Source of the DNA: Mobula hypostoma
Lineage: Eukaryota
DNA length: 64,000 nt
Assembly (NCBI RefSeq): GCF_963921235.1
Contig: NC_086097.1
Location: 133,116,001-133,180,000, forward strand
Direction: 5' to 3'
The notes under the pieces were generated by a model. The model saw only the letters and a list, made by a program, of their open reading frames with translations. It ran no database searches and had not been told where the DNA came from. Position numbers and translations under genes: made by a program. Of the stretch, positions 3,262 through 50,783 are shown one piece after another; within the stretch, counting starts at the first letter, position 1; each line of letters opens with the position of its first letter.

Positions 3262-4634
3262 ACCCACCTACTAATGTATCATCTACTACTGCCACCACAG
3301 ACCCACCTGTTTAAGAATGACTGCCTAGACATCTTTCCTGCTTTCCTTCAATCCCCTAAAATTTCACAGCACCACCCCCCCCCCACCACCACCACCACCC
3401 CTGTGTATTGGCTATTTCTGCCTTGGGAAGATGCACTCTGTCAATTACTGCCCTCTGCATGCTGTAGGCAAGCCAATTCTGAATCCATACAACCAAGTTT
3501 CCCAGGATCCTATGCTCCTACCTTTCTGCATGAGCCTACCAAGTGGAACCTTGTCGCATGTCTTGCTCCACCCACTAACCCACCACTTTATAATTTGTAC
3601 ACTCTCCTGTACCTAATGTCCCCATGTACATATAATCAATCTATGTATATATGCTATCGTGTGTATTTATATTTATTGTTGTGTTCTTTATCTTAGTGCT
3701 TTTTTATGTGCTGTATCAGATCTGGAGTAGCAATTACTTTGTTCCCCTTTACACTTGTGTCCTGGAAATGACATTAAACAATATTGAATCCTGAATTTTA
3801 CATATAGGCTATTTTCAATACTTGCCATGGTATGTTATGTTTTGGGACCATCTGCCTCTGATTCATGGAGTTGCATCTCTTTATTACAAGGTCCACAGTC
3901 CTGTCCTATCAGCTTCCATTTTCTTCAGCCTTTTGTCAATTCCACTTATCACCTTCCTGCGTCTTGTGCCATTCCCATTTCTCCCCCCCCCCACTCTTAT
4001 GAGGATCCACTTGCCAGCTCATGCTCTCCCTTCTATCCACTTTTCATATTAGTTATCTCCCCTCTTTTCAGACCTGACGAAGGGTCTCAACCTGAAAGAA
4101 CACCGACTGTCCTATTTTATCCATGGATACTGCCTGCTTCCTTCAGCCCATAGGTCTTGTGCCAGCTCTTTCACCTACACAGTGTCCAGTTCTAATTTAG
4201 AAATTTTCCACAATTTGCTTCTCCAGTGTTTTTTTCCTTAGGGATAATATTCCAAATAATTGCTTTGAAAGTGCTGAGGTGTTCGATTCCTCTATTTTCC
4301 TGCAATCAGATTGGAGGGCTGCTCTGTTTTGGGACCGTCAATACTTGTAGTTGCACCTGTAGATGTCATAGTTGACTCCTTTGTTTACAATTACCCCCTT
4401 CCTCTCCTCCCCTGCTTGTCCTCCCCACCCTTATTACATCAGGTCTGAGTAATGCTGCAGGTGAGATCATTTGACTTTTCACCTTGCTGGGTATTGCTGT
4501 GGGATTCATCAGCGGTGTGGATAGATGAATCAACTTGGTGTCCCAGGAGTGGCTGGAAATGTACAGACCATAAAAGAACGTTGGTAAAGGAACTAGAATC
4601 AACGCCTGGTTTTTTTATTGTTAATTTTTTTTAA

Positions 4635-4845
4635 ATTTTATTGTAAATAAGTCTTAATTCTTGACCAAGGTTTGAGAGTCAACGAACGATTTATTGTAAA
4701 TATTATTTTGAATATGGACTGAGAGTCAATGCATAATTTATTGTAAATAACTTTATTGAATAAGGACTCGGGGTCAACATTTTTTTGTATGTAAATAACT
4801 TTATTTTGTAATATTTCTGAATAAAGTATATTTTTGGGAAAAAAA
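4635..4845 (+). repeat. Degenerate ~50 bp tandem repeat ending in AATAAA and a short poly(A); possible L1/Tx1-type 3' end
   Basis: tttattgtaaata...gagagtcaa units occur 3-4 times; gaataaagtatatttttgggaaaaaaa at the end. Confidence 0.5.
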
Positions 4846-7800
4846 TGAAATCATTAAGATGAGGTCTAAACACACCTGGCATAGGAGTGGTGGAAAAAAG
4901 ATTATTGGTGTAATGTAGGCATTTATTTTTGATATGGCAAGTTTTTCACTGTTAATTTGGGAACTTGAGGTTTTGTGTAATCAAGGGTGTGCCTCACCCA
5001 AGAGAATCAGATGTCTTGTAGGATATAAAATTTATTACTGTGTGGCAGTACTATAGTGCCAGGACACTAAGTTACTATATGAAGTTACAATAGTGCATAA
5101 AAATGAGGTGGACCCATTCAGAAATCTGACTGTGTAAGGGATGGGTCTTCAGGCTCCTGTACGTCCTGCCCAATGGTGAGATGGTAGGGGGTTGCTTAGT
5201 AATAGTTGCTAATTTCTTGAGCCACTGCCTTTTTGAAGATGATGGTGGGGAAGGTTGTGCCTACGATGGAGGTGGGTGTGACTATAATCCTCTGCAGTGT
5301 CTTGAGATCCTGTGAATTGGTGCCTCTGCACTAGGCAGTCAGTATTCTCCACCATGTACCTAGAAATTTTTTAAAGAGTGGTGACATACCAAATCTCTTC
5401 TAACAAAGTAGAGCTGCTGCTAAGCCCTCTTCATGATATGTACCCCTCAATGTACATAGTGCATGTGTGTCAGAATTTCCCTTCCTGAATTTCACAGTGA
5501 GTTCCAATGGTCTTGCTGACGAGGGGTGCTAGTTGTTGTGACAATGCTAAACTTGCTGATCTATCCTCCTCATATGTGCCTCCTCGTCGCTATCTGAGAT
5601 TTTACCAAATAGATTGGTATCATTGGCAAATTTATAGATGGCATTTGTAGTGCTGTATGTTGACACTCCCTTCAACTTTAATAGTAACACAACATGGTGG
5701 GGCTACACAGTTGAAATGAGAAGGGAGAGTTTAACTGGAGTTGGTAGGCCTGCACTGTAGGAAGAAGGTGGTGAGTTTATGCAGGTAGAGGTGGATTACG
5801 ATATGAAATGGTTGCATTAATCAGTGAGAGGAGAGGGAACTGTGGTATGCTGAGCTACAAAATGATTTGGGGGAGATATTAGCAGAATGTAATTGCTGAT
5901 CTGTAAAATCTGCAGGTTGATGTGTTTAATGTCCCTCCATACTTAATAGGATTAGGGGTGTTAAGATATTTTTAACTTGTGGTGAGTCCAAGTAATGTTT
6001 CTGATATTTTTTTTGACTGACCAGAAGTAGAATGATTGCTGATTGAACCCTCTCTCAGAAAGCCCGTGCCTCACCAAATACCAAATACTTGGTGAAGGAG
6101 AGACTTGGCAACACTCACTAAAGGAGGGCACATTTCATGTTGCTATGACTAGCCTGCTGCAGTCTGTTTACTGTTGTCAAGTTTGGTCAGAAACCCTTGG
6201 ACATGGACAGTCACAGGAAGGGTTACTGCTTGAGTACAGCATACAGTTCTGGTCCATTTCAGAAGGGATGGAAAGCATTCAATGCAATATAGAGGATGCT
6301 TAAGGTTGTTGCTATCTTTGATACCACCAGCCCTAACCTTGCCTGAAGAGACAGTAAAGTAGGGTATTCATTGTTACAGTTCTAGCAGGCTCTTTGGTCA
6401 AGTGGAAATGAAGATGCTGCAAGATTTTACAGCAGTGACTGTGCAAAGCTAATTTAGCCATCAAGGACTTTAGAGACTTGGTGAAAGTCATTATGGAATT
6501 GGATGCCCTTTAAAATTTAAAGTGGAATGACCCATTTATCAAATGCAATGTAAAGCAAATGCTTTCTCTGCATTCTTTGCAGAATTTGGCTGTGACAAGG
6601 TTTGTGCAATTATACAATGGAGTCGTAAGAAACTGCGGATACTGTCAGCATGCAAAAAGCAGAAGCAACTCCAAGGATCAGGCAACATCCATGGAGGGAA
6701 ATGGGCAATCAGAGTTTTGTATTGAGACCTTTCATTGGACTTGAAAGATACTAGCCACCTCTGCTCTTTCAGTCCAAAGGAAGGGCCTCAGCTTGAAACG
6801 TTGATTATCTGGTACCCTCGTGCTACCTGACCTGATGAGTCCCTCCAGTGCCTTTGTGTGCAATTTTGCCATGTCTTTCTGTATTTGGGTCAAGTTCAAA
6901 TTTATTTGCAGAGGCTTGCAAAAGGTATAGGTGTCAAAAACTTTAACTTTTTTTTGTAGCAGCACAGTATATTAAAGATTTGACATTCATATGATAGTTT
7001 TTTTACCCCTTTCGACTATATGTTAAATGACTTGATTTCTACAGCTATGAAGTTGAAGGCTAAGAAGCTGAAGCATGCATTGAAGTGGGACTGAGATTTG
7101 GTTCAGGTGCTGTCCCTTTACCACACAAGCTAAAATGGCGATTAATGAAGGGAGAGGTGCCTGTCACCATCATTTCATCAAAAACATTGTCCAAGGCACT
7201 GAATATAGCTAATTGTCTCCTCTCTGCTTCCTACACCCAAAATTTGCTTTCTCAGTCCCATACCGATCTTTCCTGCAATGCATGTCAACCATAGATGTGT
7301 TGAGTTGGTAAACATAAGCAAGTGGTCTTTGTAATTACTTCCTGAACCCATTCTACTTTAGTTAGGGCTGAAGTGTTCACAGGTCATGTCTATGTAGATC
7401 TTCACACAAGTAAATTTTTTATGCAGGTCAATGGGACTAGCGGAATGATGTTTTGGCACAGACTGGAAGGGCCGAATAGCCTGTTTTCTGTGCTGTAGTG
7501 TTCTATGGTTCTATGGTCATGTGCACAAGTACAGTGAGGTACGGGTACAATGGAAAACATGCTTGCATCTGCATCATAGATGTGTAGTTGATGACAACAC
7601 AGACTATAATTTGTAGATTATACAAGACAGTAAATGGAGACAGAGACATGCCTTTTATTTAATGCACAATCAGGAAGATAACCAAGGTGGTGCGAGAGTT
7701 GGTCTGCAACGTTGCATTGCTGAGGTAGTATTGAGGTTGAGTACAGCCTAATTGGCAAGATCCTAATGGTTATTGGAAAGTAGCAGTTCCTGAAGCTGGT

Positions 7801-8979
7801 GTGAGACTTCGGGCTTCTGGACCTCCTTCCTGAGCAACAGCGAGAAGAAGACGGGGCCCATGTGGTGGGGATCTTTGCTCACAATCCCGAGGAAGCTCCT
7901 TTTGTAAATGCTGTCACTGGTGGGGAGGGCTGTAGCTTGAATGGACTGGGTTGCGTCTACTACATTCCCGGACCTCTTGCATTCCTGTGCATTGGAATTG
8001 CTGTACCATGCCATGATGCAGACAGGATACTCTCAAGATGGACATTAACAACATTGAGCACACCTGTGCAGCTGAAAATCGTGAGTTTCAACACCAGATG
8101 TGCAATCCAACTTTGTTCTGAAATGGTAAATTGGTTTATTATTGTCAAGTGTATGACAGTACTGTTAAAAGTTTTGCTTTGCATGTTATCCATACAGATT
8201 TCATCACATTGCCCCCTCTAGGTAGAACAAGAGAAAATAACAATGCAGAATTCTCTAGGAATTCAGGAAGGAAATGAAGTCAGCTTATCAGCCAAGTTAC
8301 TCAAGATTTCCAGCATCTCCAGAATATCCTGTGTTGTGGAAAGCCGAACAAAGTTACTGAGTATCTCATTTGCAAAAACATAAATATTTTGCTGCCTAAT
8401 AGAATTTCCAAGCCAAGTATTTAACAGTTTAACTTTTATTTCTCTGTGATTTTTTTCCAGGAAAGATTAGATCAGTTTATTGTCATATGCATCCATGGCT
8501 GAAACAACATTTGCAATTCTAAACAACCTTGTGTTGTGGAAGTGAAACTTGAATTGGTAATTGTAGTTGATGGTCAGGCTCAATTCATGACTGCCAGCCA
8601 AAAAGGGGAAATAATTTCCTCATACAGTGTGTTTCAGAGGTCAGGACTGTGCTATTGAATGGGCGCTAGAAGCAAACTTTGGAGGAACCTTACAATGGTT
8701 AAGTAGTAGACGGAGCCTTCAAGGATAGGACTGTGCGGTAGGATTAATTGGATAGCTTTCTCCAATGCACACAAACAATAAGTTTTCAATGCTTATGATT
8801 AATTTTTGCACTGTACCATTTGTGATCTGTTGCAAAGATTTTGAAATCGTTGTTAGGAATAACAGAGGAAATGAATTGACTCATACATCTGAGAATCACC
8901 GGCCTCCTTTTGTTTTTTTTAAAACTCCTGTCTTTATTGCTAAATTTGGAATATTTGCAACAATTAGTCCATGATCCTG

Positions 8980-9512
8980 TGTACAGTATATGGCACTTCA
9001 CTTTGGTGGCCTCCAACCCAAGTTGGAGCATGAACGTTTGAATTCTCCAACCTCTGGCAATGTGCTTCCCTCATGTCCCCTTTCTTCCTCCTTATCTCCC
9101 CTGTTCCTCCTAACTCACCCCATTTTCCCCCATCACCCTGTTTCATCTGCTCCTCTATTCACTGCATCTTCCCTTTACCCACAGACTTCTCCCAGTAGTG
9201 CCTTGCCCAGCAAGCCCATGCTCCACCTTTCTCTAGAGGTTCTATCATCTGCAGCCCTTTGTGGCTTCCACCTATCATCTCCCACCCTCTGCCTATTTCC
9301 ACACTCCCTCCTCTACCTGCTTTTTATCCCTCCTGGCTTGCATCTCATGGAGCCAGTTCTTGCTCCATCCCTTTCTTAACACCGTTTTATAGTTGTTATC
9401 TCCTTTCTATCTTTCAGGCCAGACGAAGTGTCCTGACACAAAAGATTGACTCTCCGTTTCCATTCTTTCCATAAATGCTGCCTGAGCCACTGAGCTGTCC
9501 CAGCATCTAGTG
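8980..9512 (+). mobile_element. Penelope-like element 3' remnant: end of the GIY-YIG ORF, pyrimidine-rich UTR, terminal repeat
   Basis: LHFGGLQP..SMNV/EFSN resembles the PLE C-terminal LG.LQP.GMNI.FSNF motif; followed by a CT-rich tract and the repeat shared with 9527-9760. Confidence 0.6.
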
Positions 9513-9526
9513 ATACATGGGAAAAC

Positions 9527-9760
9527 AAACGAGAAAATCTGCAGATGCTGGAATTCGAAGTAATACTCACAAAATGCTCGAGCAACTCAGCAGGTCAGGC
9601 AGCATCTGTGGAAAAGAGTAAACAGTCAACGTTTCGAGTGGAGACCCTTCATCAAGACCCTTCATCCTGATGAAGGGTCTTGGCCTGAAACGTCGACTGT
9701 TTACCCTTTTCCATAGATGCTGCCTAGCTTGCTGAGATCCCCCAGAATTTTGTGTGTATT
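9527..9760. repeat. Fold-back pair of Penelope-like terminal repeats, each carrying a hammerhead-like core
   Basis: Arm about 9566-9653 is the reverse complement of about 9668-9757. Confidence 0.85.
9665..9699 (+). ncRNA. Minimal type I hammerhead ribozyme-like motif
   Basis: CTGATGA 9667-9673, short stem II agggtcttggcct, GAAA 9687-9690, C-GTC cleavage triplet 9691-9694, gactg stem I strand; the 5' stem I strand is reduced in this copy. Confidence 0.6.
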
Positions 9761-10754
9761 ATTGTGACATATGGTATAGGGTTGTGAGCATACAATTCCA
9801 ACTTGGTTGCCTCATTTTCTTCTTTGTCTTTGTATCGCTCCATCTGTGTTCCTTTGCTTACACAAAGATCAGAATATAAGCAACAGAAACAGGAGTCCTG
9901 CTGAAGCGTTTCAGCCCGAAACGTCGAGTGTACTTTTTTCCATAGATGCTGCCTGGCCTGCTGAGTTCCTCCAGCACTTTGTGCGCATTGCTCGGATTTC
10001 CAGCGTCTGCAGATTTTCTCTTGTTCAGGAATAGACTGTTCACTAAGATCATGACTAAGATGTTGCGGCCTCGTGCACTAAAAGTCTGCATTCTCTTATT
10101 TACCTGCTCACCAAAAACATGGCAATTCAGTCAATAACTTTCTGATTAGGTAGCAGTTGCATGTGCTGACTGTGGTAATCCCTATCTAATTTGCTGTCTG
10201 GCACTCTGGCCAATATTTGTGTTCAATTCATGTTTTTTTGAGGTATGCAATCCACTCATTAAAGATTTTCAGTTCTGGAAATTTGCACAGACTAGGTTCC
10301 TTCTTACAGTTAGTATATAGTTCACTGAAGGTGATGTCACAGGTAGACAGGGTGGTGAAGGAGGCTTTTGGCAGGCTGTTCTTCAGTCATGACATTGAAT
10401 TTGGGGCATTTATGTTGCAGTTCTATAAGATGTTTTGATTCATTTATCTATCACAGGTACCCTGAGACATAGTGAAATGCATTGTTTGCATTAACAACCA
10501 GTGCAACCTGATGTGCTGAGGCAGCCTACAAATGTCGCCACGTATTTTGGCGCCAGTATATCATATCCGTAATGCTCGACAAAGCAACACAGAGCACAAC
10601 TGGTGACAAAACAGCAAAACTAGCCCCGTTCCTCTTTCCACAAATGAGAAAATCTGCAGATGCTGGAAATCCAGGCAACCCACACAAAATGCTGGAGGAA
10701 CTCAGCAGGCCAGACAGCATCTATGGAAAAGAGTACAGTTGATATTTCGAGTTG

Positions 10755-13596
10755 ACTGCCTCAAAAGCAGAGGTGGAGGTGTATGCCTCATGATCAACTC
10801 CCTTGGTGCACAAACGTATCATTGTTGTCCCAATTCTGCTCACCAGACCTAGAATACTTGCAATTAAGTGCCGTCCATTTTACCTGCCACAGAGATTTCA
10901 GCAATTATTTTGGCAACAGTGTACATTCCACATCAGGCCAATGTCAAACAGGCTCAAGATGATCTGAGCCATGGGATCAATATGCATGAAACAACACACC
11001 CTGACACCTTGATCACTTTTGGGGATTTTAATTAGGCCAACTTGAGAAAGTCACTAAATAATTACCATCAGCAAATCACTTGTAGTACCTGAAGAAACAC
11101 ACTGGATCACTGTTACACCATCATCAAGAATACCCACCATGCTATTTTATGCCCTCATTTCAGAATGTCTGATCACCTAACTGTAATTCTATAGGCAGAG
11201 ACTGAAGACTGCAGCACCAGTAGTGAGGACCAAGAAAGTATGAACAAGGAAAGCACAAGAGCACTTACAGGCTTTGAATTGGTAGACTGGACTTAGGGTT
11301 GGCAACTGTCCCATATTAGCCGGGACCGCCCTTGTCCTGTATTTCCCCCGCTAAGGTAGAGCGTTCCTATGAAACCTTGCATGCTGAAATGGCGTAAAGC
11401 GAAGAAGCAATTACCGTTAATTTATATGGGAAAAATTTGAGCGTTCCCAGACCCAAAAAATAACCTACCAAATCATACAAATAACACACAAAACCTAAAA
11501 TAACACTAACATATAGTAAAAGCAGGTATGATATAAATACACAGACTATATAAAGTAGAAATAATGTATGTATAGTGTTGTCGGGAAGATTAAGCCAGAA
11601 CTGATTTGTAGAAAAAAAGCAGTACGTACACGCATGCGCAGGATATACATGCGCACACAAGTGCCCGCGCAAAGCTTCATGGTAGTGTTTCTCGGGGTAA
11701 ACACAAGTGTCCCGTGTTTGACTGCTACTTTTGTCCCTTATTTGGGAGTGAGAAAGTTGGCAACCCTAACTGGACTGTATTCAGGAATTCATCTTTGAAC
11801 CTGGATGAGTATGCTACAGTTGTTACTGACTTCATTACAGTCTTATGTAGATGAGTGTGTGCCGATGAAACCTTGCTGTACATTCCCAAACCAAAAGCTG
11901 TGGATGAACCTGGGGGTCTGTCGTTTGCTGAGGGCTAGATCTGTAGCATTTAAGACTGGTGACCCAGACTCATACGAGAGGGCAATTTCAAGAATGAAGA
12001 GACATTTCTGAGTGAGGTTGGAGGTGGCATCGATGCGCATCAACTCTGACAGGGTTTGCAGGACTTCTTACAAAGCAAACCCAGTAGCATGAATGGCAAC
12101 AATGCTTCACTATCAGCTGAGCTCAAAGCCTTTATGCCTGCTTTGAGAGGGCATAATGAGAGGAGAATATAACTACAACTGTGAAGATCCCTGCTGCACC
12201 CCGGTGACCCTATGATCTTGGTCTCAGATGCTAATGGCAGGCTGTTTTTAAGGAGGGTGATCCTTTGCAAGGTGGCAGGCCCCGATGGAGTACCTGGTAA
12301 GGCTCTCAAAACTTGTGCCAACCAACTGGCAGGGGGCATTTTCAACCTGTCACTGCTATGGTTGGAATTTCCCACCTGCTTCAAAACTCCACAATTATAC
12401 CAGTGTCTAAGAGTAGTGTGAGCTGCCTTAATGACTATTGCCCAGTTGTAATCACATCTACGGTGATGAGATGCTTTGAGAGGTTGGTCATGATGGTCAT
12501 ATGTCAGGATGCTGTTCATTAACTATAGCTCAGTGTTTAACACCATCGTTCCCACAGTCCTGATCAATAAGCTACAAAACCTGGACCTCTGGACCTCCCT
12601 CTGTAATTGAATCCTCAACTTCCTTATTGGAGGACCACAATCTGTGCCGATTGGTGATGGTATCTCCTCACTGACAATCAACACTGGTACAGCTTGAGTG
12701 TCTGGTTAGCCCACGGCCTACTCCCTCTTCAGCCATGACTGTGTGGCTAGGAATAACTTAAATACCATCTATAACGTTGATAATGATACAGCAATTGTTG
12801 GTAGAATGTCGGTTGGAGATGAGAGGGTGTACAGGACCGAGATATACCAGCTAGTTGAGTGGTGTCGCAGCAACAACCTTGTACTCAATGCCTATAAGAC
12901 GAAAGAGATGATTGGAGACTTCAGGAAGGGTAAGACGAGGGAACACGAACCAATCCTCATAGAGGGATCAGAAGTGGAGAGAGTGAGCAATTTCGAGTTC
13001 CTGGGTGTCAAGATTTGAAGCTCTAACCTGGTCCCAACATATTGATGAAGCTGTGAAGAAGGCAATACAGCGGCTATATTTCATTAGGAGTGTGAAGAGA
13101 TTTGGTTTGTCACCTAAAACACTCAGAAACTTCTATAGATGTACTGTGGAGAGCATTCTGACAGGCTGCATCACTGTCTGGTATAGGGCAGGGGCTCTAC
13201 TGCACAGGACTGGAAGAAGCTACAGAGAGTTGTAAAATTAGTCAACTCCATCTTGGGTACTAGCCTCTGTGGTATCCATAGTCAGGAGCGGTGCTTCAGA
13301 AAAATGATGTCCATTATCACGACCCCCATCTCCTAGGATATGCCCTTTTCTCATTGTTACTGTCAGGGAGGAGGTAGAGAAGCCTGAAGAAACAGACTCA
13401 GTGATTCAGGAACAGCTTCTTCCCCTCTGTCCTACAATTCCTAGATGGACATTGAACACACGAACACTACCTCACTTTAAAATATATTTCTGTTTTTGCA
13501 TGTATATACTTTAACTGATTTGCTTAATTTTTCTATATTATGTACTACTGCTAAGTTAACATTTCACAACATGCTGGTGATTAAATTTGATTCTGA
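10755..13596 (+). mobile_element. Degenerate Rex1/Babar-type non-LTR retrotransposon (endonuclease + RT), interrupted by a hAT MITE
   Basis: GGGVCLMINS, PFYLP, VYIP (endonuclease); [73 protein letters not shown]; tgattctga-like tail. Many stops and frameshifts. Confidence 0.88.
11294..11768. mobile_element. Non-autonomous hAT MITE (475 bp)
   Basis: TIRs tagggttggcaact / agttggcaacccta (13/14 match); perfect 8-bp TSD actggact at 11286-11293 and 11769-11776; the Rex sequence resumes on both sides. Confidence 0.92.
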
Positions 13597-16500: not shown

Positions 16501-18230
16501 CATATCCTCCATTCTCTGCAGATCATTGTTCCTATCTACACAATTATCATATCAGCTTCCACAGCCACCCCTGACAGTGCATTCCAGACACCCACCTTTG
16601 TGTTTTTTCAAAATTTTAAACTTGCTGTGCACATCTCCTTTGAACATGGCATCTAATTTGGACAGCATCCTGGTAAACCTCTACTGCACCCTTTCCAAAG
16701 CTTTCAAATAGTACACGTGTGGGTGACTCAAATTGAATGCATTTACTGTAAATTTTATTGTTTTAAATGCTTCTGCTGTCAGGATTTTAATAAAAGTGGT
16801 TAATGTTGCACTCTTAGTCTATGGGCTAAAGATTTAAAAACTGTTGGAAGATTCTTTAGCACAAAGACAAAACAACTGTATAAGCTCGAGTGTTGGAATC
16901 ACTCAGCAGGTCAGGCAGCTTCTGTGGAGCCAGAAACTGTTTGGATCGGTGACCTTTTATTTTTGGAACTACTGAGTGCTGAAGTTCCTGTCAGTTACAA
17001 AGTCAAAGTTCAGTTCCTTGTCACGACTGCACAAGTGCAATGAAAAAGTTACGGCATTGCCCCGCGGGCAAGTAGCAGCATAACAGCGTTCACAAGTAAA
17101 AACGTAAACTGTTCATAACTTTTGAGCCTTGCACTGTGCATGTCTGCAAAGGGGATTTCACTGTGACGTGTTATTTTAAGAAACAGAGCAAGAAGGGAGA
17201 TGAAGTGAGGAGCGAGTCGGTCTGAATATAGTGTGGGGGGGGCGGTGCTATAGTTTTCCCACTTCATATGTGTCATTATGTAAACTTTCCAGTACCCAAA
17301 CAGTTTGGGAAAGAAGAGAGCACAGTCATTCTCCTGTCTTTGACCCATAGCTGCCTGCCCTTGGATGAAAGGAAGTGGTGCAGTGTTCTGCTGTGAGTCA
17401 GACATGGGGCATGAATATTGGACGTATCAGAGACTCTCTGAGCATTGGGCAGTCATTTGTTCTTGCAGGCCAGCTGAGATCTGGTGGAACCAAACAGTCA
17501 CTGAAACTAGACTGTCTTAAAGAGTGGGGGGGGGCGGGGGGGAAATACTAGCATTTTAAAAAATTGAAAGTACTGACACAAGCGTATGCATAGTGCGTTC
17601 ATGCTTGTCATCGTTCAACTGTATACATGTACACAATATTCAAATCTCTACTTTCAATAAAACATGAGTGAGGGAGGAGTTGCAGTGCATGTAGGGAGCT
17701 GCAGAAAGAAAATCCAATCTCTGAATCTGTACTAGAGAAAAAATTCTGAAGCTGGTATCTTCGTGTTGTAATGAGCAAACAACATGAATACTAACGCAGG
17801 CTGTGACAGAGGAACAGATGGGGAAACTTTAAGCAAAGCTGAAACTGATTATTGAAAGCAGCACATGCTGGAAACACAGCAGAATAGGCAGCATCTGTGG
17901 TGAGAGAAACGGTTAACATTTCAGGTCAAAGATGTTTCATTCCTTGGTTAATGTGGTAATAGACCATGCTCCAAATTACTCCAGTGTATATGAAACAAGC
18001 TAACAATTTACCCTGAAAATATAATATCTTTTCCCAGAACAAGTAATTTGAACTCAAGATTTCTTAGTACACAGATCTATGCAGCAGTTTGTACTTTCTG
18101 GGCCAGTCAAAACTTTCAACACTGGCAGTAAACCGTGTAATTTTAGCCATTTTGTGATATGTGATACACTTAGAATCTGACTGTTGAAAGCTACTAAACA
18201 GACCTGGCCTAAAACATTGACTGTTTAGTC

Positions 18231-19467
18231 CAGGGGTCCCCAACCTTTCTCGCACTGCGGACTGGTTTCATATCGACAATATTCTTGCGGACGGGCCGAC
18301 CGGGGGTGGGGGGGGGGGGGTGGGGTTGCCAACCGACAGGAGTAGCAGTCAAATACGTTGTGTTTACCCCGAGAAAGACTACAATGACCATGAAGCCTTG
18401 CGCGGGCACTAGTGCGCATGCGTAACTTGCGTATGCGTGTTCGGCCCGATTTCTTAAAAACCGTTTTTGCCGATTCTGTTGCCGGCGGGGGCGGGGGTGG
18501 GTGGGGTGTTAATCACAACCGGAATATTGGTGATAAGTGGCTAATACACTCAATTTCGTTTCTAAAAGGGTTTATCTAACGAATTTACTATTAAACACGC
18601 AGTGCATATTTTCCTCGCATGAATATAGCGATAAGACAATTATCAGGGGAGGACAGGGGAGCTTGAAATAAGTGTTGAATGAACTTCCAGTAGAAGTGGT
18701 AGAAGCAAGTTCGATATTATCATTTAAAGAAAATTTGGATAGGTATATGGATGGGAAAGGAATGAAGGGTTATGGGGCTGAGTGCAGGTCGGTGGGATGA
18801 GGTGAGAGTAGCGTTCGGCACGGACTAGAAGGGCTGACATGGCCTGTTTCCATGCCGTAATTGTTATATGGTTCTATAAGTCACTTATAATAGCATCATA
18901 ACATTTTAAGTAACGTTTGGATATTAAACATACAGCACATATTTTCCTCGTATGAACATATAAAAACATTGAAACACACCAATATCGCTGAATCAGTGGG
19001 AGCCCTGGGGTTGTTTTCCTACAACAAGACGGTCCTATCGAGGGGTGATAGGAGACAGCAATACTCGAAGGGGGTTCCTTATGTCCAGTCTATTCCACAA
19101 TTCAGTTTTTGTTACATTCATCACAGAGATATGTTGGAAATGGAAGCAACGTTTTTAGTGCTTTCGTAGCTATCTCAGGATATTCAGCCTTGACTTTGAT
19201 CCGGAATGCCGGCAGAGCTGTGATGTCAAACATACTTTTCAGCCTGCCCTCATTTGTAAGCTCGAGGAGTTGATCTCTTTCCCGCGCTGACACGGATGAC
19301 GCGCGGGTAATGAGCTCGTGTGTGTTCGAGCCCAACAGTGGGCGTGACAGGGAATGAGGAAAGGCGCAGCTGGCTCGTATCACCAAATCATATCGTTTCC
19401 TCACGGCCCGGTAGCACATGCCTTGCGGCCCAGTACCGGTCCGCAGCCTGGTGGTTGGGGACCGCTG
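18231..19467 (-). mobile_element. hAT-Charlie type deletion derivative (1237 bp) with transposase C-terminal remnant
   Basis: TIRs caggggtccccaacc / ggttggggaccgctg; TSD gtttagtc / gcttagtc (7/8); ORF 19102-19419 contains IKVKAEYPEIATKALKTLLPFPTYLC (hAT dimerisation domain-like). Confidence 0.9.
18645..18880 (+). mobile_element. CR1 3' fragment nested in the Charlie element
   Basis: NELPVEVVEASSILSFKENLDRYMDGKG-type CR1 C-terminus with ttatatggttctat tail; flanked by an imperfect duplication ataagacaattat / ataagtcacttat. Confidence 0.75.
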
Positions 19468-20597
19468 GCTTAGTCCTCTGCATAGATGCTACCTGACCTG
19501 CAAAGTTCTGCCAGCACTTTGTCTGTGTATTGCTCAAGCTTTCCAGCATCTGCAGAATCTCTTGTTTTGGATCATTTCTGGTGCTGGATTCTGGTCTGCA
19601 CTGAACAAGTCTGAGGAAATGGATTGACTGGATTTGTTTTACTTGGATGAGAGGAGGTTGGGAACCTGATTGAGGTATACAAAATTGGAGTGGCCAAGAA
19701 AGGGATAGATTGCAAGAGGACATTGCAGAGGTGTTTAAGACCAGAGGAAAGGGGTTTGAAGTGGATATGAGGTAGATTTTTTTTCAGCCAGATGATGTGG
19801 TTGGGATCTGGAATGCACTGCCTGAAAGGAGGGTGGTAGCAGATATACTCCTAACTTTTAAGAAGCACCTGGGTGAGCAATTCTGTGGCCAAGACATGGG
19901 AGCTATGAAGTAAGTGCTGGTGAATGGAATTAGAAAGTGACTTGATGGTTGGCTTCAGTATGGTGGGCCTCTTCCTGTGGTTTATGACCACAGTTCTAAA
20001 GTTATCAAGTGATCACTTCGTGTCAGACCAGACAGATAGCTGCACTCTTTTTAAACGAGCATGCTCACACTAGAGGGCTTGAGAGCAAATGTCATAAGAT
20101 GGATGTGAGCCAGAAGCTGTCAGTGTGGTGTTCATGGGAGAGGGTTGAATCCTTGGTGAGGCACAGTTCATGCAAGTCCTTGAGCTCTGTATGAGCTTTG
20201 GTTTGGTAACTGAGCAGTGTCAAGTTAAATCTGAACCAGTTTACTCACAATTGGAACATGGAATCGTGCTCTATGGATACCGAACCTCATTCATACCATT
20301 ATTAAGCAACCACGAATGCAATTTCCATACCTTTCCTCATATCCACCTCAGCACCCTCTCCCTGCTATTTGTCACTGTGCTAATGGTCATTTACAGCATC
20401 CAATTAATCTACAAATAAGCACACCTCTGGAATGTGGGAGGAAACTGAAGTATATTTGGGAATCTCTCAGCTACAAGGAGAACATGCTAACTGCACATAG
20501 GTGAGAGAGTACTGAAGGATGAGTTTGAACCTGGGTGTGTGGAGAGATAGGCAACAGCAATAACTCCTATTCCTCATAGAAGTTAGGAGAATAGTAC

Positions 20598-27100: not shown

Positions 27101-27105
27101 ACAAA

Positions 27106-38010: not shown

Positions 38011-38064
38011 ATGGGAAACCAGACTGGGAAACATGAGCAACTTCAACCTACTTCAGGCGAAAAA
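38011..38064 (+). CDS. MBP: Golli-MBP first coding exon (Golli exon 2), MGNQTGKHEQLQPTSGEK; exon starts at 37999 (or 38002) with a short 5'UTR
   Basis: Pyrimidine tract tttcttgttctctcttag acceptor, ATG at 38011 in context cagg-ATG-G, donor AAA|gtaagg at 38065 (phase 0). N-terminus resembles mammalian Golli MGNH(A/S)GK as I recall it; splices in frame to 63357. Confidence 0.88.
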
Positions 38065-41000
38065 GTAAGGAAGCATTGATGTAACCTTATTTTTTTTAAG
38101 TACTATTCTACAACCTGGTTCAGTTGTTTTAACATTAGATATCCTATAAATCCATCCAATAGTTCAGTGGGTTTTGGGTTCACTTTGAATATGTTTAGAT
38201 TTTCAAGGACATAAAAGAACGGCAGAAAAAGGTAGCCAGCAGGCCCTTCCAGTCCTTCCACCGTACAATGTGATCATGGCTGACCTATGCTGCCTTACCA
38301 CTTCCCTAAGCCCTCAATTTCTCTTTCTTTTAAATATTTTATCTCCACTTTTATCTATTGATCTGCTCTCGCCATCCTTGGGACGGAGAACTGCAGACTT
38401 TCTAGATGCAATGCAAGGTGTTACTAGGCCACCATTCACAATATTAGACCTTACAGTTCAGCCCTTCTCTCACTGAACAATGTGATGATTTATGAAAATA
38501 ATTCTCTTCAACAGACTATGAGCAAATATGAAAGTCATTGTGGCCCTTCACTAGTGTTCCTAATCGCTAGTTTAGTAACACAATAACCACTTTGCCTATT
38601 TTCTACTAAATTAGACTTTTTTGTTCTAATTGTGTTTTTTTTTTAAAAACATTGTTTTTAATTGTGACTGCTGCTTGTATGTTGCTATGTGCCTACGATG
38701 CTCCTGCATGCAAGTTTTTAATTGCACCTGTGCGTATGTGTACTTGTGCATATCACAAGCTTGACTTTGAGAGTGCTGGAAAGGTTCACCAGAGCTCGCC
38801 TGGAATGGCGGGCTGTAGTTACATTGAGAGAGTGAATAAAATAGATAATATCAGTGTGACATCAGTTTTTCTTCTGCAAAAGAAAACCTTTCATGAGCAG
38901 GAAGTTAGAGGGTTTGTTTGTTTTTCTTTGGGCAGTTTCCCGCTCCTTGATGCGTGGTGGTGGGTGAGCCTTAAGGTCTTGTCATTTCTCCCCACTGAGT
39001 TTTGTTCTGGCTGCATCCACCTTTAACGTATCCGTCGAAATGTACTCCTATACCTTGTGATATGGTGTTCTCTGGCGTTCCCTTGAGGGCTCTGAAAACT
39101 GCAGGATTTGTGGCAAGAGCAGTTGGCTCCAGCAACAACTAGAACTTGTCTCCACATGTCCTTAGAAACTGCTGGTAGAGCACAGATTGTTGGGTTATTC
39201 AGGCTGTATGGGACATGGTCCACAGCATTCCTCACCTGCACCTCACATTCCAAGAGTGTCTCATTTCAAAGTAATGGTATTCAGTTCTGGTTGCTGAAGG
39301 ATGTGGAGGTTTTACCAGATGCTGCCTATGAGGAGAGGCTGGATAAAGTGGGTTCTTTTCTCTGGAATGATGGAGACTGAAGGGAGACCTGAGAGAAGTA
39401 TATAAGATTGAGAGGCCTATGTAGTCAACTGATGTTTTTTTAAAAAAATTATTTTCCAGGGTTGATGGTTCTAATACTAGAAGGCATATATTTAGGGTGA
39501 GAGGGGAGAGTAATGCAGAATTTATTTTTTTTTTAGTGCAGTGTGTGCCTAAAATGTGCTACCAGAGGGTAGTGGAGGCAAATCCCACAGAGGATTTTTA
39601 GGCACATGAACAGAGAATGGAGAGATAGGATATGTAGGCAGAAGAGATTAATTTAGTTTGTCACAACATTGTGGAGTGAAGGGCCTGTTCCTATGCTGTA
39701 TTGTTCTTAAAAAAAAATAAACACAATAAATAAAAATTTCCTCATAATTTTTGCCTGGCCTACACATTCTTAGTGTTATCAGACCCATGCATTTTTAGTG
39801 TCATTCAGTTAACACATTCTATATAAAAAGCTCCAAAGTCATTCAAATGGCCTCTTCTGCAAGGATAACCAAATATTTGAAGTGTGTATTGTACTGCAGG
39901 GTAGCATCCTTTGCAGAAGCTGCTTCCAAATGCTTGTCACCACAAGATTTCCAAATTGGACGTGACTGTCTGATTCATAATATTGTGGTGTGGAGGTAAC
40001 TGATGAGCTTCATAAACAGGAAGTAGTTGCAGAAGCCAGCAGCCTGCAGCTTGCTCTCTCTGTTTGTAAGCCCTACTGGGCCGTCTGATGTGGGCTTCTG
40101 GTAACCCAAGACTTGGTGCAAAAACAGAGTTACCCTCCCATCTATATTCCACGAACTCCAAGAGTTAAAGGTAAAGCTCTTAAGATCAGGGATTTTCTAA
40201 AGAAAATAGAGAGGGGAGTAACATTTTTTTAAAAAGCGCAAAAAACAACGGAGAGTAGGCCATTTGAGCTTTGCAGCCTGCACTATCATTTTTCAAGCTC
40301 AAGACTGAATTTTTAACGGTGCTATTTCCCTAACATGTCTTCATTTTTTTTTGCTTATTACCTGAAAAGATCTTCAGGGGATATCTGTCTAATGGGAGCA
40401 TCTAGATCTAGGGGGGGCATAGGTTCAAGATGAGGCCTTTGCATCATAAGACAAAGATAAAATGAAATGATATCTCTCAGAAGGTCTGTCGTTAGAAACG
40501 TCTTTGTCAAAGACTGTAGAGCGGCCTTTGAGCACTTTTAAAGCAGAGGCTGATAGAGCAACATGCACAAAATGCAGGAGGAAATCAGCAGGTAAAGCAG
40601 CATCCACGGAAGTGAATAAACAATTGATGTTTTGGGCCAAGACCTTTCTTCAGGACTGGAAGTGAAGGGGGAAGTTGCCAGAATAAGAAGGTGCGGGGAG
40701 GGAAGGAGAGAGAGCGAGCTACAAGATGATAGGTGAAGTCAAGTGGGTAGGAAACGTCAAGGGCTGGAGAAGGAGGAATCTATAGGAGAGGAGAATGGAC
40801 TCTAGGGGGAAAGGGAAGAAGGAGTGGCTCTAGGGCGAGGTAGATAATTTCTTGAGTTTAGAACATAGAATTTTACAACTCAGGAAATGGCCCTTCGGCA
40901 CGTGATGTTTTGCTAAATTAACTAGCAAATTATGCCGAATCCTTTCTATCTGCATGTCCATATCCCTCCATTCTCTGCAAATTCTTAAGCAAAGAGTTAA

Positions 41001-43539
41001 AAGGGTAAAGGCGAGTATGTGAGAATGTGGTGTTGGGTTACAGTCCGTAAAACCATGATACTATAAAATTGTGGAGCAGTTGCAAATGGCTTACTTCTGC
41101 TTATTCTTGTGCAGGGTCTGTGAAAATTGTTTTGTCAAACTTGCTACACAGTTAAGGAGAGTAACACCCACAAAAACTCTGACCCATGTGTCACCAATGT
41201 GACACAACTGTCAAAGGACCAGAATGTACGGTGATTCATTATCATACTATTATGAGGAATGGGAGAAAGAGTCTGGCTATAAAACAAAGACACAGCCAAG
41301 GTGGGAAGCTGCCCATATGAATGGGCAGTGACTGTAACCAGGCTGAGGTGAAAACGTTTCATTGTTAAATGCGACCTTTTTCTTTGTGCTATGTCACAGC
41401 CTCGTAATCTTGGAATATCCAAGATGAGGACCGTTCCAGTCGTCAGCCTTCCATACTGCCTTGCCCATGGCTGTTGAATTCATTGCTAGCCTTGGCATTG
41501 AACTGTGACTGCACTCTGAACTATGCAATATATCTGTTCTAATCAGTTTACTACCTGATCTCAAGACTAAAGGATGAGGATTCTTATGCTGAATGGTGAG
41601 GGGAAGGACTCCAGTCTAGTAACGATGGCTCTAGTCTTGTTCTGATGAGAGTCTCAAACTAAAGCATGGATCATCCCTTTGCTTCCATAGATGCTGCCCA
41701 TCCTGCTGAGCTCCTCAGGCATTTAGAGTGAGAGAAGATCTCACTGAAACTCCGTTACTCTCTGGACCATATGGTTTTCCCCTGACAGAGGAGTCTGGAG
41801 CGAGAGGGGTGGAGGAGTTCACAGAACTACAGGCGATTCTGCAAATGCTGGGAATCTTGAGCAACACACAGATGCAAGGTGCTGGTGGAAGTCAGCATCT
41901 ACCGGGGGGAGGGGGAATAAGACCACATATATAGGAGCAGAATTAGGCAATTTGTCCCATCGAGTCTGCTCCGAATAAAGTCATTGTTTGGGTTCATTCC
42001 TCCATAATTCCAAAGTCTGCAGACACTTGTTTCCCCATGATTACTTTAGGTTGGGAATATAAATGTAGACATCATTGGCCGAGAGGCCTGGTCCTGTGCC
42101 ATACTCTTCTATAATTTTGCCCCTCAGCCTCTGACACGCCACAGAATTCAAAACAAGTTTGTTCAACGTAAGCAAGAAATTGATTAGCTGTAGGTTTTAT
42201 TTGTTTTGAGTTACATTTGAATCTCCAGATTGATGCTATAGTGTGCAATTAGGAAGGATGAATAGTGTCAGAAGGGACCTTGCATGCACCCAGTGACACA
42301 TCAGTGAGAGCAATCTCCTTGTATAACTGCTGGGGTATTTTAAGGAACATTGCTCCTGCAAGAGCTCACTGGTTAAGAATCTAACATTCTACATATGTTT
42401 TGAAGTGTGGCTGTGTTAATTGTTCTACCGTCTGGGCAAAGCATGTTGAGGGCAAGAATCTAAAACAAAGTGGAAAGACATAAATTTGCTACGTTACAAA
42501 AGTAAACAGTACAAAGCAGAAGGAATAATGGTAAAACATTCATGGACTGTTCAGAAATATAGTGGGGAAGAATCTCTCTGAATCATTGAGTTGGGTCTTC
42601 AAGCCCCCCGTACCTCTTCCCTGTTAGTAGTAATGAGAAGAGGGCATGTCTCAAGTGGTGAGGTCTTTAGTTGAGGCACCAGCTCTTGAAGATGGCCTGT
42701 ATAGTGGGGAGGGTTGTGCCATGGTGCACAGAGAGACTACAACCCTTTACAGTCCCTTGTAATCCAGTTCATTGGCGCCTCCATACCTTGCAACCAGTCA
42801 GAATGCTCTCCACCTTAGAGAAACTTGCAAGAATCTTTGGTGGCATATCAAATCTCTTCGAGTGCCAAATGAAGTAGAGGTGCCTTTGTAAGAGCTGACT
42901 CTAATATAACTGGTGTAGCTGAAAACCCAAAATGGGGGGTGTGGGGGGGGGAAGGGGTAGGTGGGGAAGCAGAATGTTGGGATATTTCAGAAGTGCAAAT
43001 GGAAAAACATTTGTCTGTTGAGACAAGTTACAGGCAAATGAGAAGGAAATGTGGCATAGCATCTACTCACACAGCTACCTGCAGCTTATTGCCTTCAAGT
43101 TGCAGAATAATTTGCTTTGCAAAGGAAGGTGAGAGAGGAAAAAACAATGGCTGACACAGTTTTAGTGATTTAAAGATTAGAGACAACCGGTTAGGGGAAG
43201 TGTAAAGAGAAGGTGAAATCTGCATCATTTCCTGCCACTGTACTAAAACCAAGCCAAGATTGTTTAGGAGTGAGGCAGAACTGAAAATGTCAAAAAGGAA
43301 AGTGGTGTATTTGGTTGTTCAAGGACACTAAAGGGGCCAAAATCTACAAATGGAGTTCTGATACAGGTGCTCCCATACTTCCCTATTCTGTGACTAATTC
43401 GTTTAAATCTGTGCACACTTTTACTAAGGGAAATAGATTATTGGGCTACAGGCTCTCAACCCATTCTTTCCAAATCCCAGCCCTCTATCACACAGCTTGT
43501 TTCTCATTATCCACACACTCCTCCCACTAGGTGCCTTCC

Positions 43540-45480: not shown

Positions 45481-45934
45481 ACTACTGTGAGGAACAGTTT
45501 GTGGTGAGGGAGATGCTGCTCTTTCTGCTGTGTGGTTGTGTTATGTGGCTGCAGGAACTAGTTTGAATTCTCTCAGGTTTATTTGCATGGATTGTGGCTA
45601 CCGGTGCCCTTTTTTTTTCACTTCTTGTAGGTTCTCCAAGTTGCACACCATCCTGATTTTGGAAAAACTTTGCTGTTCTTTAATATCATCCTGTTTTCCC
45701 CTTCCCTACAATGCTATGGGAGCACTGTCACAAGGAGGACTGCAGCAGTTCAAGAAGGCAGCTCTCCTAAACCTTCTCAAGAGCATTTGGCGTTGGGCTA
45801 TGAATAGATAAACTGAAGGAGGCATGGAAATTGGCACAGCATATAGAAACCAGAATATGAGCAATGTCCATAGCAGGAAGAGAGGACAGCTGTCCAGTGG
45901 AGACTGCAGCTTGCTCATGCCTGTCACTACCACT

Positions 45935-46390
45935 CAAAATTGAACATCAATTTCTCAAACAGCAATTTCTCTTCCCCATTCCCCATTCAGGCTCCCCACT
46001 TGCCACCTCATCTCACCTGCCCATTACTTCCTGCTGGTCTCTTCCTCCTTCTCTTTTCCCCATCGTCCACCTCCTTTTCTTATCTGATCCTTCCTTCAGA
46101 ACCTTTACCTCTTGCATCTATCATATCCACCTTCTCACTTCATCCCCTTACCCCACTCACCCACATCCCCTCTGGTTTCACCCATTGCCTACTTCTACTC
46201 CTTCCCCTCTCCCCACTTCTTCCCCCTTCCCCCTTCGTTTCTAGTATTGAGTAGTTATAGTAGTTCATGTCTTCCCCCTTTGTTTCTAGTATTGAGGAAG
46301 GGTCTTGGCCTAAAACATCGACTGCTTATTCCTCATCGTAGGTGCTGCCTGAGCTGCTGAGTTTCTCCAGCATTTTGTGTGTTACTCAGA
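45935..46390 (+). mobile_element. Penelope-like element 3' remnant
   Basis: LNINFSN, CT-rich tract, then gaagggtcttggcctaaaacatcgactg..gctgagtttctccagcattttgtgt. Confidence 0.6.
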
Positions 46391-46679
46391 CTGAAATGTT
46401 GTCTGAGCCTACATGCTTATGATGCTGCTACAAGCAAGTTTTTCTTGTACTTGTACCTCACTGTATTTATGTCCATGACCATAAACTTGACTTGATCTGA
46501 CACTGGCTACTGAAGTAAAAAGCTTCATCAGACAGTGTTCAATGGCAACACTTGGGCACATTTTATCATTTAAACGCTTAAACAGTTTAAGAAACTAACA
46601 TTTATGTCTTTTGATTCTTATAAATAAGTTGCATTTCTGATGTTTATCCTACTATTAGTTCGGGGGCCCTGACTTTCTT

Positions 46680-48104: not shown

Positions 48105-48285
48105 CCTCTTGGGTTCAATCCCAACCTGTATGGAGCTCGCATGTTCTCCTTATGACAGCATGGGCTTACACCAGATGACCCGGCTTTCTCCCACATCCCA
48201 GAGGTTAGTTGGCCACTGTAAATTGCCCTTTGTGTAGGCAAGCAGTCATATCTGGGGGTGGGGGGGTGGAATTAATGGGGGGAAA
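48105..48285 (+). mobile_element. V-SINE (HE1-like) copy
   Basis: B-box-like gggttcaatccc, then V-domain-like tggagctcgcatgttctcct..cggctttctcccacatccca..ttggccactgtaaattgccc. Confidence 0.7.
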
Positions 48286-50783
48286 TGACATTTCGATCTG
48301 CAATAGTCTTAAGGGACACGAGGAAATGTGTAAATATGCAGCGGTTCTGTAATGTTGAATGGGAGAAGGGAAAATGTTACTTAAAGCCTTTCTGCAGTCA
48401 GGAGGACATCTGCAAGCTCTGCATAAAGATCCTGAGAAGAGAAGTGCAGCTCCCATCTCCCCATGTGCACAAAATTGGACAATATGACTTCTCCCTTTTT
48501 ATTTTCTAGTAATACAAATTATTTTGAGAGATTGGAGCTGCTTTTGGTACCATACACAACACTCTAGTGTAACAAATAAGGGTGAACTGTTAGTAGCAAA
48601 ACTAAAGGTGAGCAGAAAATGGCATCAGTTTTGTGGATATTTCAGAATCATGAGTAATAACGACATGGAAACAGGCTCTGAGGGCCAACTCGATCATGCC
48701 AGTGAAGATGTCTGCCCAATTTGGCCCATAAACCCCCTCAACCCCTGTAATCCACATACTTATTGAAATAAGACACACAAAATGCTGGTGGAATGCAGCA
48801 GGCCAGGCAGCATCTATAGGAAGAGGCAGTGTTGACGATTCGGGCCGAGACCTTTCGTCAGGACTAACTGAAAGAAGAGATAGTAAGAGATTTGCAAGGG
48901 AGAGGGGGAGATCTGAAATGATAGGAGAAGGCAGGAGGGGGAAGGATGGAATGTCTTAATGAAATGTCTTTTAAATGTCATTATTTGCACCTACTTCAAC
49001 CACTTCCTCTGGTAGCTCCTTCCATAGACCTGCCACTTTATACGTGAAAAAAGTTGCTCTTCAGATTCCTAATAAATCTCTCCCCTCTCACCTTAAATCT
49101 GTTCTGTCTAGTTCTTGATTTTCCCCAACCCAGCAGTAGCAGATGGTGTGGCCCAGAGCAATCAAAGCAACCTGCTGGAAGAATTAAGTGGGTCTGGCAG
49201 CAACTTTGAAGGCAAAAGGATAGTCAATATTAATTAGTAAAATGCATGCGTTGACACAAGTTGTTGCTGAGATTCTGTGTCCAATGTACAATGAATATTA
49301 GCGAGTCTTCTGCTCTCTACTCAAGAGCTCAGCATCTCAATATGCAGAAGTTATTAGAAGCACAGAAGCTATTTTAAAAAAAAAAAATGCCCAGTCAGTG
49401 GATTGCACCCATGTTATGATTTGCATCTGGAGTATTCTTGTGTTCACTCACTCTGAGCGAGATGTTGGAAGATCCATTCCAAAGATGTGCAAAAATCTAG
49501 GCTGATACTCCAGTGCAGCCGCGTCTTTCAGGTAAGACGACATGTTGATGCATCTGCTCGGGTGTATGTTGCCTTCGGGTCCTATGCTGCCTTCTTAAAG
49601 AAAAGAGCTTTCTGTTTTCTTGACTAATATTTAAACTTCATTTAAGATTAATAAAGCTCCTTAATTTAAGTAATTTTAAATTGGGCATCAGCCAATCTTA
49701 TTGAGCTGTTTCTATTTTCTTGAAAATTTAAAATCTGCAGATTCTGGAAATATGAACTGAATGTGCTGAAAACACTCAGCAGTCAGGCAGCAACTGTGGA
49801 AAGCGAAACAGAGTTAATGTTTCAGACCTGATATCTTTTGCCATTTGTGTTCTGACCTGCAGTGATTGGTTTGCATTTGTAGAATTAGTGTGATGTAGGA
49901 ATGGGCTATTCAGCCTATTGAGCCAGTTCCATGAAGAGTCCTGTTCAGACTATTGTAATCGGTAAGTTGGTTTGTTATCATCAACAGTACTGCAGTACAG
50001 TTTGAAAACTATATGTACACCAGCTATACAGATCTTCCCAAAACCGAGGTACACTGAGTTAGTACAAAGGGAAAAGCAATAGCAGAATTCAGAATATAGT
50101 GTGAAAGTACAGGGCAGGTAGAGAAATAAGGTGCAAGGGTCATGGCAAGGTAGAGAGGAAATGCAAAGAGGCCACACATCCTGGGATTTGGGGCAAAAGG
50201 CAACCTACTGGAGGAACCCAGTGTGTTAGATGGTCTGTAGAGGCAGAAGACGGTCAATATCTTGTGTCAGAATCTTGCTTTAGGATTGGTGCATTATCTC
50301 AACCCAAAAATTCGACTGTCCCTTTGCTTCCATAGAAGTTGCCAAGTCCACTGAGGTTTTTGGACCAGTTGCTTTTTCATTCTTGCCTAATAAGTGAGTT
50401 GGCTAGTATAGTTATAAGATGAGACAACTGATTTCTTGTATAAAAACATAGTCTCAAGTTAAAAATATTTACAGCTAGCAGTCAAGGGTAATGCTGTGGT
50501 TCAGAGTGCATCCAAATTAGTGGTGAAAGGAAGGGTGTGGTGTTAATGTGTGTTTGCAGTTGCTTTCTCAGTAACTCACGATGTTTGATAGTCTCACCGT
50601 ATTAGACTATTAATTTATTGATCAATACATTTAAGTAAAACATCTTTTGAATTCTTTATCCTTAAGGTTTATGGCAGCTGGATCACTGGAGATATTTAAA
50701 ACCTGATTGGATGGTTTTTGAAAGAGTGGGGAATTGAGAGTTACAGGGAACTGGGACAGGAAAGATTAGAGGCCTGTGGCAGA

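Follow-up and report, generated by a model that had tools for sequence, protein, structure and literature searches.

Decayed minimal hammerhead repeats, likely the truncated ends of a Penelope-like retroelement, in a 64-kb stretch of Mobula hypostoma DNA

The repeat family and its copies

The DNA analysed here (the window) is a stretch of 64,000 nucleotides from Mobula hypostoma (contig NC_086097.1, positions 133,116,001 to 133,180,000), and all coordinates below are positions within it. It holds two Golli-like exons, several reverse transcriptase (RT) relics, and many copies of a repeat of about 125 nt that contains a motif resembling the hammerhead ribozyme. An initial annotation had read these repeats as a Penelope-derived family encoding a minimal hammerhead. 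The family is real and that annotation is largely right: the feature is a known one, and the copies are dead. We consider it highly probable that the repeats are decayed copies of one abundant family whose consensus fits the minimal hammerhead (min-HHR), and that they are likely 3' ends, truncated on their 5' side, of a Penelope-like retroelement (a Penelope-like element, PLE).

An nhmmer profile was seeded with six copies from the window and then iterated. It gave 29 matches, corresponding to 28 insertions, since the matches at 18144 and 19460 are one copy divided by a later insertion. Almost all matches are strong (27 at E<=1.3e-5, with two weak ones at E 0.003 and 0.007), and the best match in the reversed window, used as a null control, has E 0.16. 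The matches are divided almost evenly between the strands (15 plus, 14 minus), and at all 15 positions listed in the initial annotation a copy is found on the strand given there. The copies are as follows, where C3 is a position of the hammerhead core, the body is the part between the motif and the tail, and letters A to E denote head-to-head pairs; copies marked nhmmer are supported by the profile match.

3887-4150, plus: long copy with pyrimidine-rich upstream segment, hammerhead (C3 at 4074) and partial body (nhmmer)
6602-6750, minus: pair D left arm (C3 at 6738) (nhmmer)
6758-6870, plus: pair D right arm (C3 at 6775) (nhmmer)
8281-8353, plus: tail-only fragment, weak match (E 0.007)
9066-9512, plus: longest copy, with pyrimidine-rich upstream segment, hammerhead (C3 at 9420) and body
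9530-9660, minus: pair A left arm, with tail (C3 at 9655) (nhmmer)
9664-9761, plus: pair A right arm, without tail (C3 at 9667); its core is the only intact one, its stem I is truncated, and pairing with the left arm is predicted to bury it in a hairpin
9893-10025, plus: solo copy from stem I (C3 at 9898), with tail
10625-10755, minus: copy starting within stem II, with tail
16840-16989, minus: degenerate copy, body only (nhmmer)
17794-17936, minus: copy starting within stem II (nhmmer)
18200-19585, plus: one copy split by a DNA-transposon-like insertion (18231-19467) (nhmmer)
22569-22727, minus: pair B left arm (C3 at 22721), weak tail
22729-22825, plus: pair B right arm (C3 at 22734), without tail
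25098-25260, minus: copy with tail (C3 at 25241)
25603-25878, plus: copy (C3 at 25736) with a tail and an upstream segment of about 130 nt
26351-26451, minus: pair C left arm (C3 at 26445), short at its 3' end
26452-26591, plus: pair C right arm, starting at stem II, with tail
40523-40820, minus: long copy (C3 at 40653)
41633-41784, plus: copy starting at the core (C3 at 41642)
41811-41919, minus: 3' fragment with tail (nhmmer)
45930-46412, plus: long copy (C3 at 46292)
48720-48960, minus: copy (C3 at 48861) with about 100 nt of pyrimidine-rich upstream sequence
49106-49235, minus: copy starting near the cut site
49705-49840, minus: copy starting within stem II
50142-50292, minus: pair E left arm (C3 at 50283), weak tail
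50296-50380, plus: pair E right arm, starting within stem II, without tail
53867-53974, plus: weak degenerate copy (nhmmer E 0.003)

The unit opens with a hammerhead-like motif of 38 nt, which is followed by a linker of pyrimidines and some 50 conserved nt; a tail of about 30 nt is optional. The initial annotation had recognised the hammerhead part but made the unit too short, about 60 more conserved nt, and in some copies the tail, lying 3' of the motif. Six copies also have a pyrimidine-rich upstream segment. When the upstream segments of six pre-chosen long copies were aligned with each other, five of the six exceeded the 95th percentile of the null, and these five have 130-240 nt of upstream sequence in common. 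It is worth adding that five copies form a local cluster within 1.4 kb (9400-10780).

The insertion at 18231-19467 has 15-nt terminal inverted repeats (14/15 match) and an 8-nt duplication, GTTTAGTC/GCTTAGTC; we take these features to be typical of hAT elements. As it splits a hammerhead copy, it is younger than that copy.

The hammerhead motif

The column majority of the copies consists of a 5-bp stem I (CAGTC/GACTG), the core CTGATGA-A, a stem II of 4 bp with a 4-nt loop, GAAA, and C-(A/G)-T-C. The stems, core and GAAA of the consensus previously drawn by eye are found in the column majority, G12 of the core only after one CpG is restored. The decay pattern at G12 supports this restoration, the dinucleotides there being TG in 7 copies, CA in 7, CG in 4, TA in 4 and other in 2. 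The G12 column and three others have the paired TG/CA pattern of CpG decay, and conservation is 54% in CpG columns as compared with 85% in the remaining core columns.

With this one CpG restored, the consensus fits a strict min-HHR descriptor, which only 1 of 100,000 mononucleotide shuffles does, and in the CpG-restored 125-nt unit stems I and II are predicted at a probability of 0.85-1.0. Features that the descriptor does not score are also present, these being a stem II that opens with a G-C pair, a base separating it from position 9, and a U-rich 5' flank. Judged from its sequence, the restored consensus agrees with the minimal type I hammerhead described for PLEs. In an alignment of 19 copies, 73.9% of the cells in the named stems are paired, compared with 18-44% when the partners are slid along the sequence.

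Stem III had been described as the self-complementary ACGU. The counts at this site in the window are CA 10, CG 6, TA 3, TG 2 and other 5. In the loose-end consensus of contigs from other loci the site reads ACAT in two DNA runs, and ACGT in one row of a probable RNA run; at positions 9692 and 9923 no G>A row reaches 25% in the overlaid contigs, for which the counts are incomplete. The ACGU palindrome would therefore be an inferred ancestral state, and not the majority.

The individual copies are all damaged, as the initial annotation had stated. The strict descriptor has no match in the window, and 17 of the 18 scored copies have core defects. The sole intact core, at 9667 on the plus strand, has a stem I truncated at its 5' side, with 3 of 5 pairs left; its stem II is predicted at a probability of about 0.1 when folded alone and 0 when folded with its inverted partner arm. 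Together the two arms of this pair A (9655 minus and 9667 plus) are predicted to form a hairpin of -131.5 kcal/mol (z -16.7). No structural constraint is visible in the decay of the genomic copies, which are predicted to be inactive, and their state is the one expected if a single ancestor had decayed neutrally.

Arrangement of the copies

Ten of the copies form five head-to-head pairs joined by their hammerhead ends, with C3 positions of 6738/6775, 9655/9667, 22721/22734, 26445/~26452 and 50283/~50286. When 28 copies are placed at random, the mean number of such pairs is 0.13, and none of 20,000 simulations reached five. All ten arms start within about 15 nt of the 5' edge of the motif. In four of the five pairs the tail is present on a single arm (the tailed arm scoring >10 bits and the other <0), the fifth being ambiguous; solo copies occur both with and without a tail. 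The end of the tail lies 109 nt past the start of stem II.

For 20 of the 26 copies examined, no homology upstream exceeds the null (scores 21-44, null 95th percentile 51). The 5' ends are ragged, ranging from about -14 to +28 and beyond. The upstream segment is of low complexity and divergent, so that the ends of solo copies are uncertain, while in pairs the partner marks the end. None of the five inversion junctions is at the hammerhead cut site, and 5' ends at the cleavage site were not seen, at most two copies (49231 minus and 16969 minus) being ambiguous. Inspection by eye found no consistent microhomology at the five junctions. There are no partial tandems in the window that would form pseudo-long terminal repeats (pLTRs) around an open reading frame (ORF), all copies being short, and no head-to-tail tandem array among the profile matches; the nearest same-strand neighbours (9420, 9667 and 9898) have an inverted arm and unrelated DNA lying between them, and all are incomplete.

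Among 32 contig pieces, two from other loci (one in each of two DNA runs) span an inverted junction located at this same position, and a third, from a probable RNA run, comes close to doing so. Joints to 'opposite strands' in the overlaid contigs were set aside as artefacts of the repeated copies in the stretch. We also considered whether the inverted pairs might act as built-in ribozyme dimers; this was rejected, only one arm being sense in any RNA.

Long copies (for example at 9400-9419 and 4055-4073) have a pyrimidine run that resembles a splice acceptor, its terminal CAG lying within the 5' strand of stem I. In Penelope of Drosophila virilis an intron ends at helix I.

A further head-to-head arrangement is formed by the copies at 25241 (minus) and 25736 (plus), which are 495 nt apart. 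The sequence between them appears to us SINE-like (SINE, short interspersed nuclear element). Because both arms are tailed, these are possibly two independent insertions.

Relation to a Penelope-like coding element

Upstream of the longest copy (9420 plus) there is one candidate for a remnant of a PLE protein:

8975-9065, plus: possible frameshifted relic of the last 25 or so codons of a PLE GIY-YIG ORF (seen by eye only)

Its three frames read LHFGGLQP, MNV and EFSNLW. Upstream of the copy at 46292 (plus), near 45935-45960, one frame reads KLNINFSN, which may be a second relic of an ORF end. We read both as ORF ends tentatively. Both possible relics bear a loose resemblance to the Neptune endonuclease ends shown in PMC8557442 (Fig S2).

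Pfam was searched with 16 selected stop-free frames of 47, some of them trimmed. The sole match over all 16 frames was RVT_1 at 27694-28263, which adjoins no copy. Pattern scans for related loci found none in metagenome_contigs and none in viral_contigs. Of the claim that the family is Penelope-derived, the min-HHR motif and a PLE-like insertion architecture are borne out, and a Penelope RT/GIY-YIG ORF beside the copies is not (no Pfam match in the five frames tested there). The description as a mostly non-coding family is more simply replaced by one of 5'-truncated ends of a coding element.

Abundance and occurrence elsewhere

Over the window segment 8850-10080, 155,203 contigs of one DNA run, which may come from the source of the window itself, and 143,265 of another, which carries a second organism code, were overlaid at a likeness of at least 80%. 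Over the copies the summed contig depth reaches more than a million at its peak, as against about 6 over the unique flanks; it should not be read as a copy number. Since 155,203 contigs of one DNA run match this stretch of 1.2 kb, the family is genome-wide and not special to one gene. At the mutated positions of the copies at 9655 (minus) and 9898 (plus) the contigs mostly read the consensus, with 76% of the depth at C3, 58-82% in stem II and 96% in stem I (9928).

A protein search with a frame over the body and tail gave one match among eight candidates, a CBFA2T1 isoform model of Hemitrygon akajei whose last residues are the translation of the repeat; the repeat family therefore occurs in a stingray. 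The search was meant to show whether a PLE ORF starts in this frame, and its sole match is a gene model of the host rather than a protein of a PLE. The body (9934-9948 and equivalents) has a polypyrimidine tract ending in TAG and then an ATG, and the translated end of the CBFA2T1 model starts at that ATG. This suggests that the polypyrimidine-TAG is used as a cryptic splice acceptor in stingray CBFA2T1.

In a probable RNA run, one contig of 2,939 nt and depth 73 has the motif, body and tail at its end. A full-length element could have this length, but the contig could also be a host 3' untranslated region.

Hammerheads of PLEs have been a published class since 2014 (PMC4209133). A literature search on Penelope with shark or chondrichthyan found, at the level of titles, no paper devoted to this repeat family.

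Host gene and other features of the window

Two exons on the plus strand, bounded by AG and GT, were found with Golli motifs, and we take them tentatively to be those of Golli-MBP:

38011-38061, plus: Golli-like ATG exon, 51 coding nt, AG before and GT after (putative identity, from a motif)
63357-63426, plus: Golli-like next exon, ending EDNEVF-G, bounded by AG and GT (putative identity, from a motif)

Checks on the Golli identity by protein search, Pfam and literature gave no match, and no convincing match to a classical MBP exon motif was found in the window. Golli and MBP share a transcription unit (PMC3828561). The initial annotation had the family colonising the introns of MBP. This could apply to the ten repeat matches that lie between the two Golli-like exons (40.5-54 kb); the other 19 are upstream of the ATG exon, and the copies at 4-26 kb may belong to intron 1 or lie beyond the gene. 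As the family is genome-wide, there is no sign of a preference for the Golli-MBP locus, and nothing suggests a role of the repeats in Golli-MBP regulation.

LINE-like (long interspersed nuclear element-like) RT relics are found at 27181-29855 (minus), about 33443-34100, 51806-52767 and 58800-61300, and are separate from the hammerhead family; the RVT_1 match (27694-28263) has E 1.1e-20. At 50783-50899 there is an AT-rich, near-perfect hairpin of about 115 nt, which is probably a miniature inverted-repeat transposable element; Rfam microRNA matches to it are weak, far below the gathering scores. An open frame of 129 codons at 2262-2648 (minus) has an ordinary composition and no Pfam or Atlas match, and may be an exon or due to chance.

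Comparison with known systems

One close resemblance is to the min-HHRs in the pLTRs of metazoan PLEs (PMC4209133, Cervera and De la Pena 2014). Both have CUGANGA followed by an extra base, a G-C pair opening stem II, GAAA and NUH, with no helix III beyond 15.2/16.2, a short helix I and a U-rich 5' flank, and the layout of the repeat is that of the consensus row in Fig S3 of that paper. In both cases the motifs are mostly dispersed single ones from truncated elements, with neighbours on opposite strands. However, stem II is short here (4 bp with a 4-nt loop), the motifs on opposite strands are 0-40 nt apart as opposed to about 100-700 bp, and no cartilaginous fish is named in Table S1 or in the rows of Fig S3 that were consulted. 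At the places of the stem III palindrome, C and A are also found in a coelacanth family of Fig S3.

The Poseidon element PAc from Anolis carolinensis (Frangieh et al. 2024, PMC11167929) has an ORF that starts at stem II, and its reverse transcription starts 111-118 nt into the ORF. Two adjacent start sites bound a tail, both DNA strands are cut and extended, and the template is uncleaved RNA. In the present family the hammerhead is likewise about 110 nt upstream of the 3' end of the copies, there are two alternative 3' ends separated by the tail, and the tail ends 109 nt past the start of stem II, a likeness to the 111-118 nt of PAc that is one of geometry only. Cutting and extending both strands would also give head-to-head pairs. 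Unlike in PAc, no protein has been recovered for the family here.

Insertions of endonuclease-bearing (EN+) PLEs are described as having 5' truncation, an adjacent inverted 5'-truncated copy and a one-sided tail of 30-40 bp (Craig et al. 2021, PMC8557442). The copies here share the heavy 5' truncation, the inverted neighbour and a tail of about 30 nt on one arm, but differ in that both arms are tiny and the junction is at the 5' edge of the hammerhead. No specific statement on a junction at this edge was found in the literature search or in the passages of PMC8557442 that were consulted.

Animal non-LTR (long terminal repeat) retrozymes (bioRxiv 10.64898/2026.07.22.740005) are similarly non-coding, have a type I hammerhead, derive from the pLTRs of PLEs, and include one chondrichthyan. 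They are, however, head-to-tail tandem arrays that are reported to be depleted from introns, whereas the repeats here are dispersed singles and inverted pairs.

Discussion

By analogy with PAc, we propose the following origin for the copies. The RT/GIY-YIG protein of the element would cut the host DNA, and reverse transcription would begin internally, at either of two positions some 80 or 110 nt beyond stem II, to leave copies without or with the tail. It would usually halt early, often near the 5' edge of the hammerhead. Where both ends of the break were extended, head-to-head joining of the two short cDNAs would produce the inverted pairs. Uncleaved RNA was the likely template, because most copies keep the core, which is upstream of the cut site. 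The motif itself would work only in RNA of the parent element, as a dimer or with the help of protein.

Several results weigh against the interpretation of the repeats as min-HHR remains of a PLE. The plain majority consensus fails the strict min-HHR descriptor, as G12 of the core is A in 13 of 25 copies, and the majority at stem III is ACAT and not ACGT. The comparison with slid partners is biased in favour of the named stems, because the structure was taken from the consensus. Covariation in the stems of the 19 copies is not above that of shuffles (0.227 compared with 0.239, with 333 of 500 shuffles reaching the score), and RNAalifold predicted 0 pairs from the aligned copies; for these two reasons the structure of the motif rests on an inferred ancestor. 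Absent covariation is expected for decayed copies of one family. No hammerhead family is among the 12 matches to Rfam covariance models up to E 10. On the coding side, Pfam gave no family in the five frames tested beside copies, a search for PLE motifs found no convincing match in the six frames of the window, and Atlas returned no usable match for 8975-9067. The clustering of 5' ends, moreover, fits a short non-autonomous unit equally well.

The missing Rfam match, the absence of covariation and of an RNAalifold structure, and the need to restore one CpG would speak for the hammerhead being a coincidence in an unrelated repeat. We regard this as scarcely credible, given that only one shuffle in 100,000 fits the descriptor, that the unscored extra features named in PMC4209133 are present, and that an independent PLE architecture occurs together with the motif. 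Scarcely more plausible, and very improbable in our view, is the idea that some copies function in host RNA, whether as active ribozymes (with a dimer partner supplied by the pairs) or as hairpins with a regulatory role in Golli-MBP pre-mRNA. It could draw on the intact core at 9667, which is on the same strand as the Golli-like exons, on the strength of the pair A hairpin, and on the stingray protein model ending in repeat translation, by which the repeat is seen to enter gene models. However, a pair offers one sense arm per RNA and so no dimer partner, stem II of this copy is poorly predicted alone and lost with the partner arm, all the other scored copies have core defects, and there is no covariation; the hairpin is a consequence of how the copies were inserted, and no selection is needed to account for it.

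A more serious alternative, still an unlikely one, is that the copies come mainly from a short RNA of about 110-140 nt, non-autonomous and SINE- or retrozyme-like, which starts near the 5' edge of the hammerhead and is moved in trans by a PLE protein. This would suit both the large number of copies (20 of 26) that lack upstream homology above the null and the start of all ten pair arms so close to the motif edge, and PLE-derived retrozymes are reported from one chondrichthyan (bioRxiv 10.64898/2026.07.22.740005). On the other hand, five of the six long copies have their 130-240 nt of upstream sequence in common, two long copies continue into the possible ORF-end relics, the 5' ends are ragged, and the head-to-tail tandem array that defines retrozymes was not seen among the profile matches. 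The clustering itself could reflect stalling at a fold, a boundary of the RNA or a short non-autonomous RNA, between which five pairs cannot separate. Truncated 3' ends of a PLE remain our preferred explanation for the family.

With this family the PLE hammerheads gain an example of very high copy number from a genome that is cartilaginous-fish-like, this group being absent from the 2014 lists consulted in PMC4209133. Because it is so large, the family offers a good natural record of the points at which reverse transcription of PLEs begins and ends, and this record bears on the open question of the role of the PLE hammerhead. We put forward tentatively, and with more doubt than conviction, that the folded uncut hammerhead, or the polypyrimidine-CAG that ends in stem I, sets where the reverse transcriptase stops. 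If this is true, the ribozyme would be a structural terminator and not an RNA-cutting device, mass-producing insertions of about 130 nt and palindromic head-to-head pairs, and a vertebrate genome would have been seeded with double-stranded RNA hairpins and cryptic splice acceptors.

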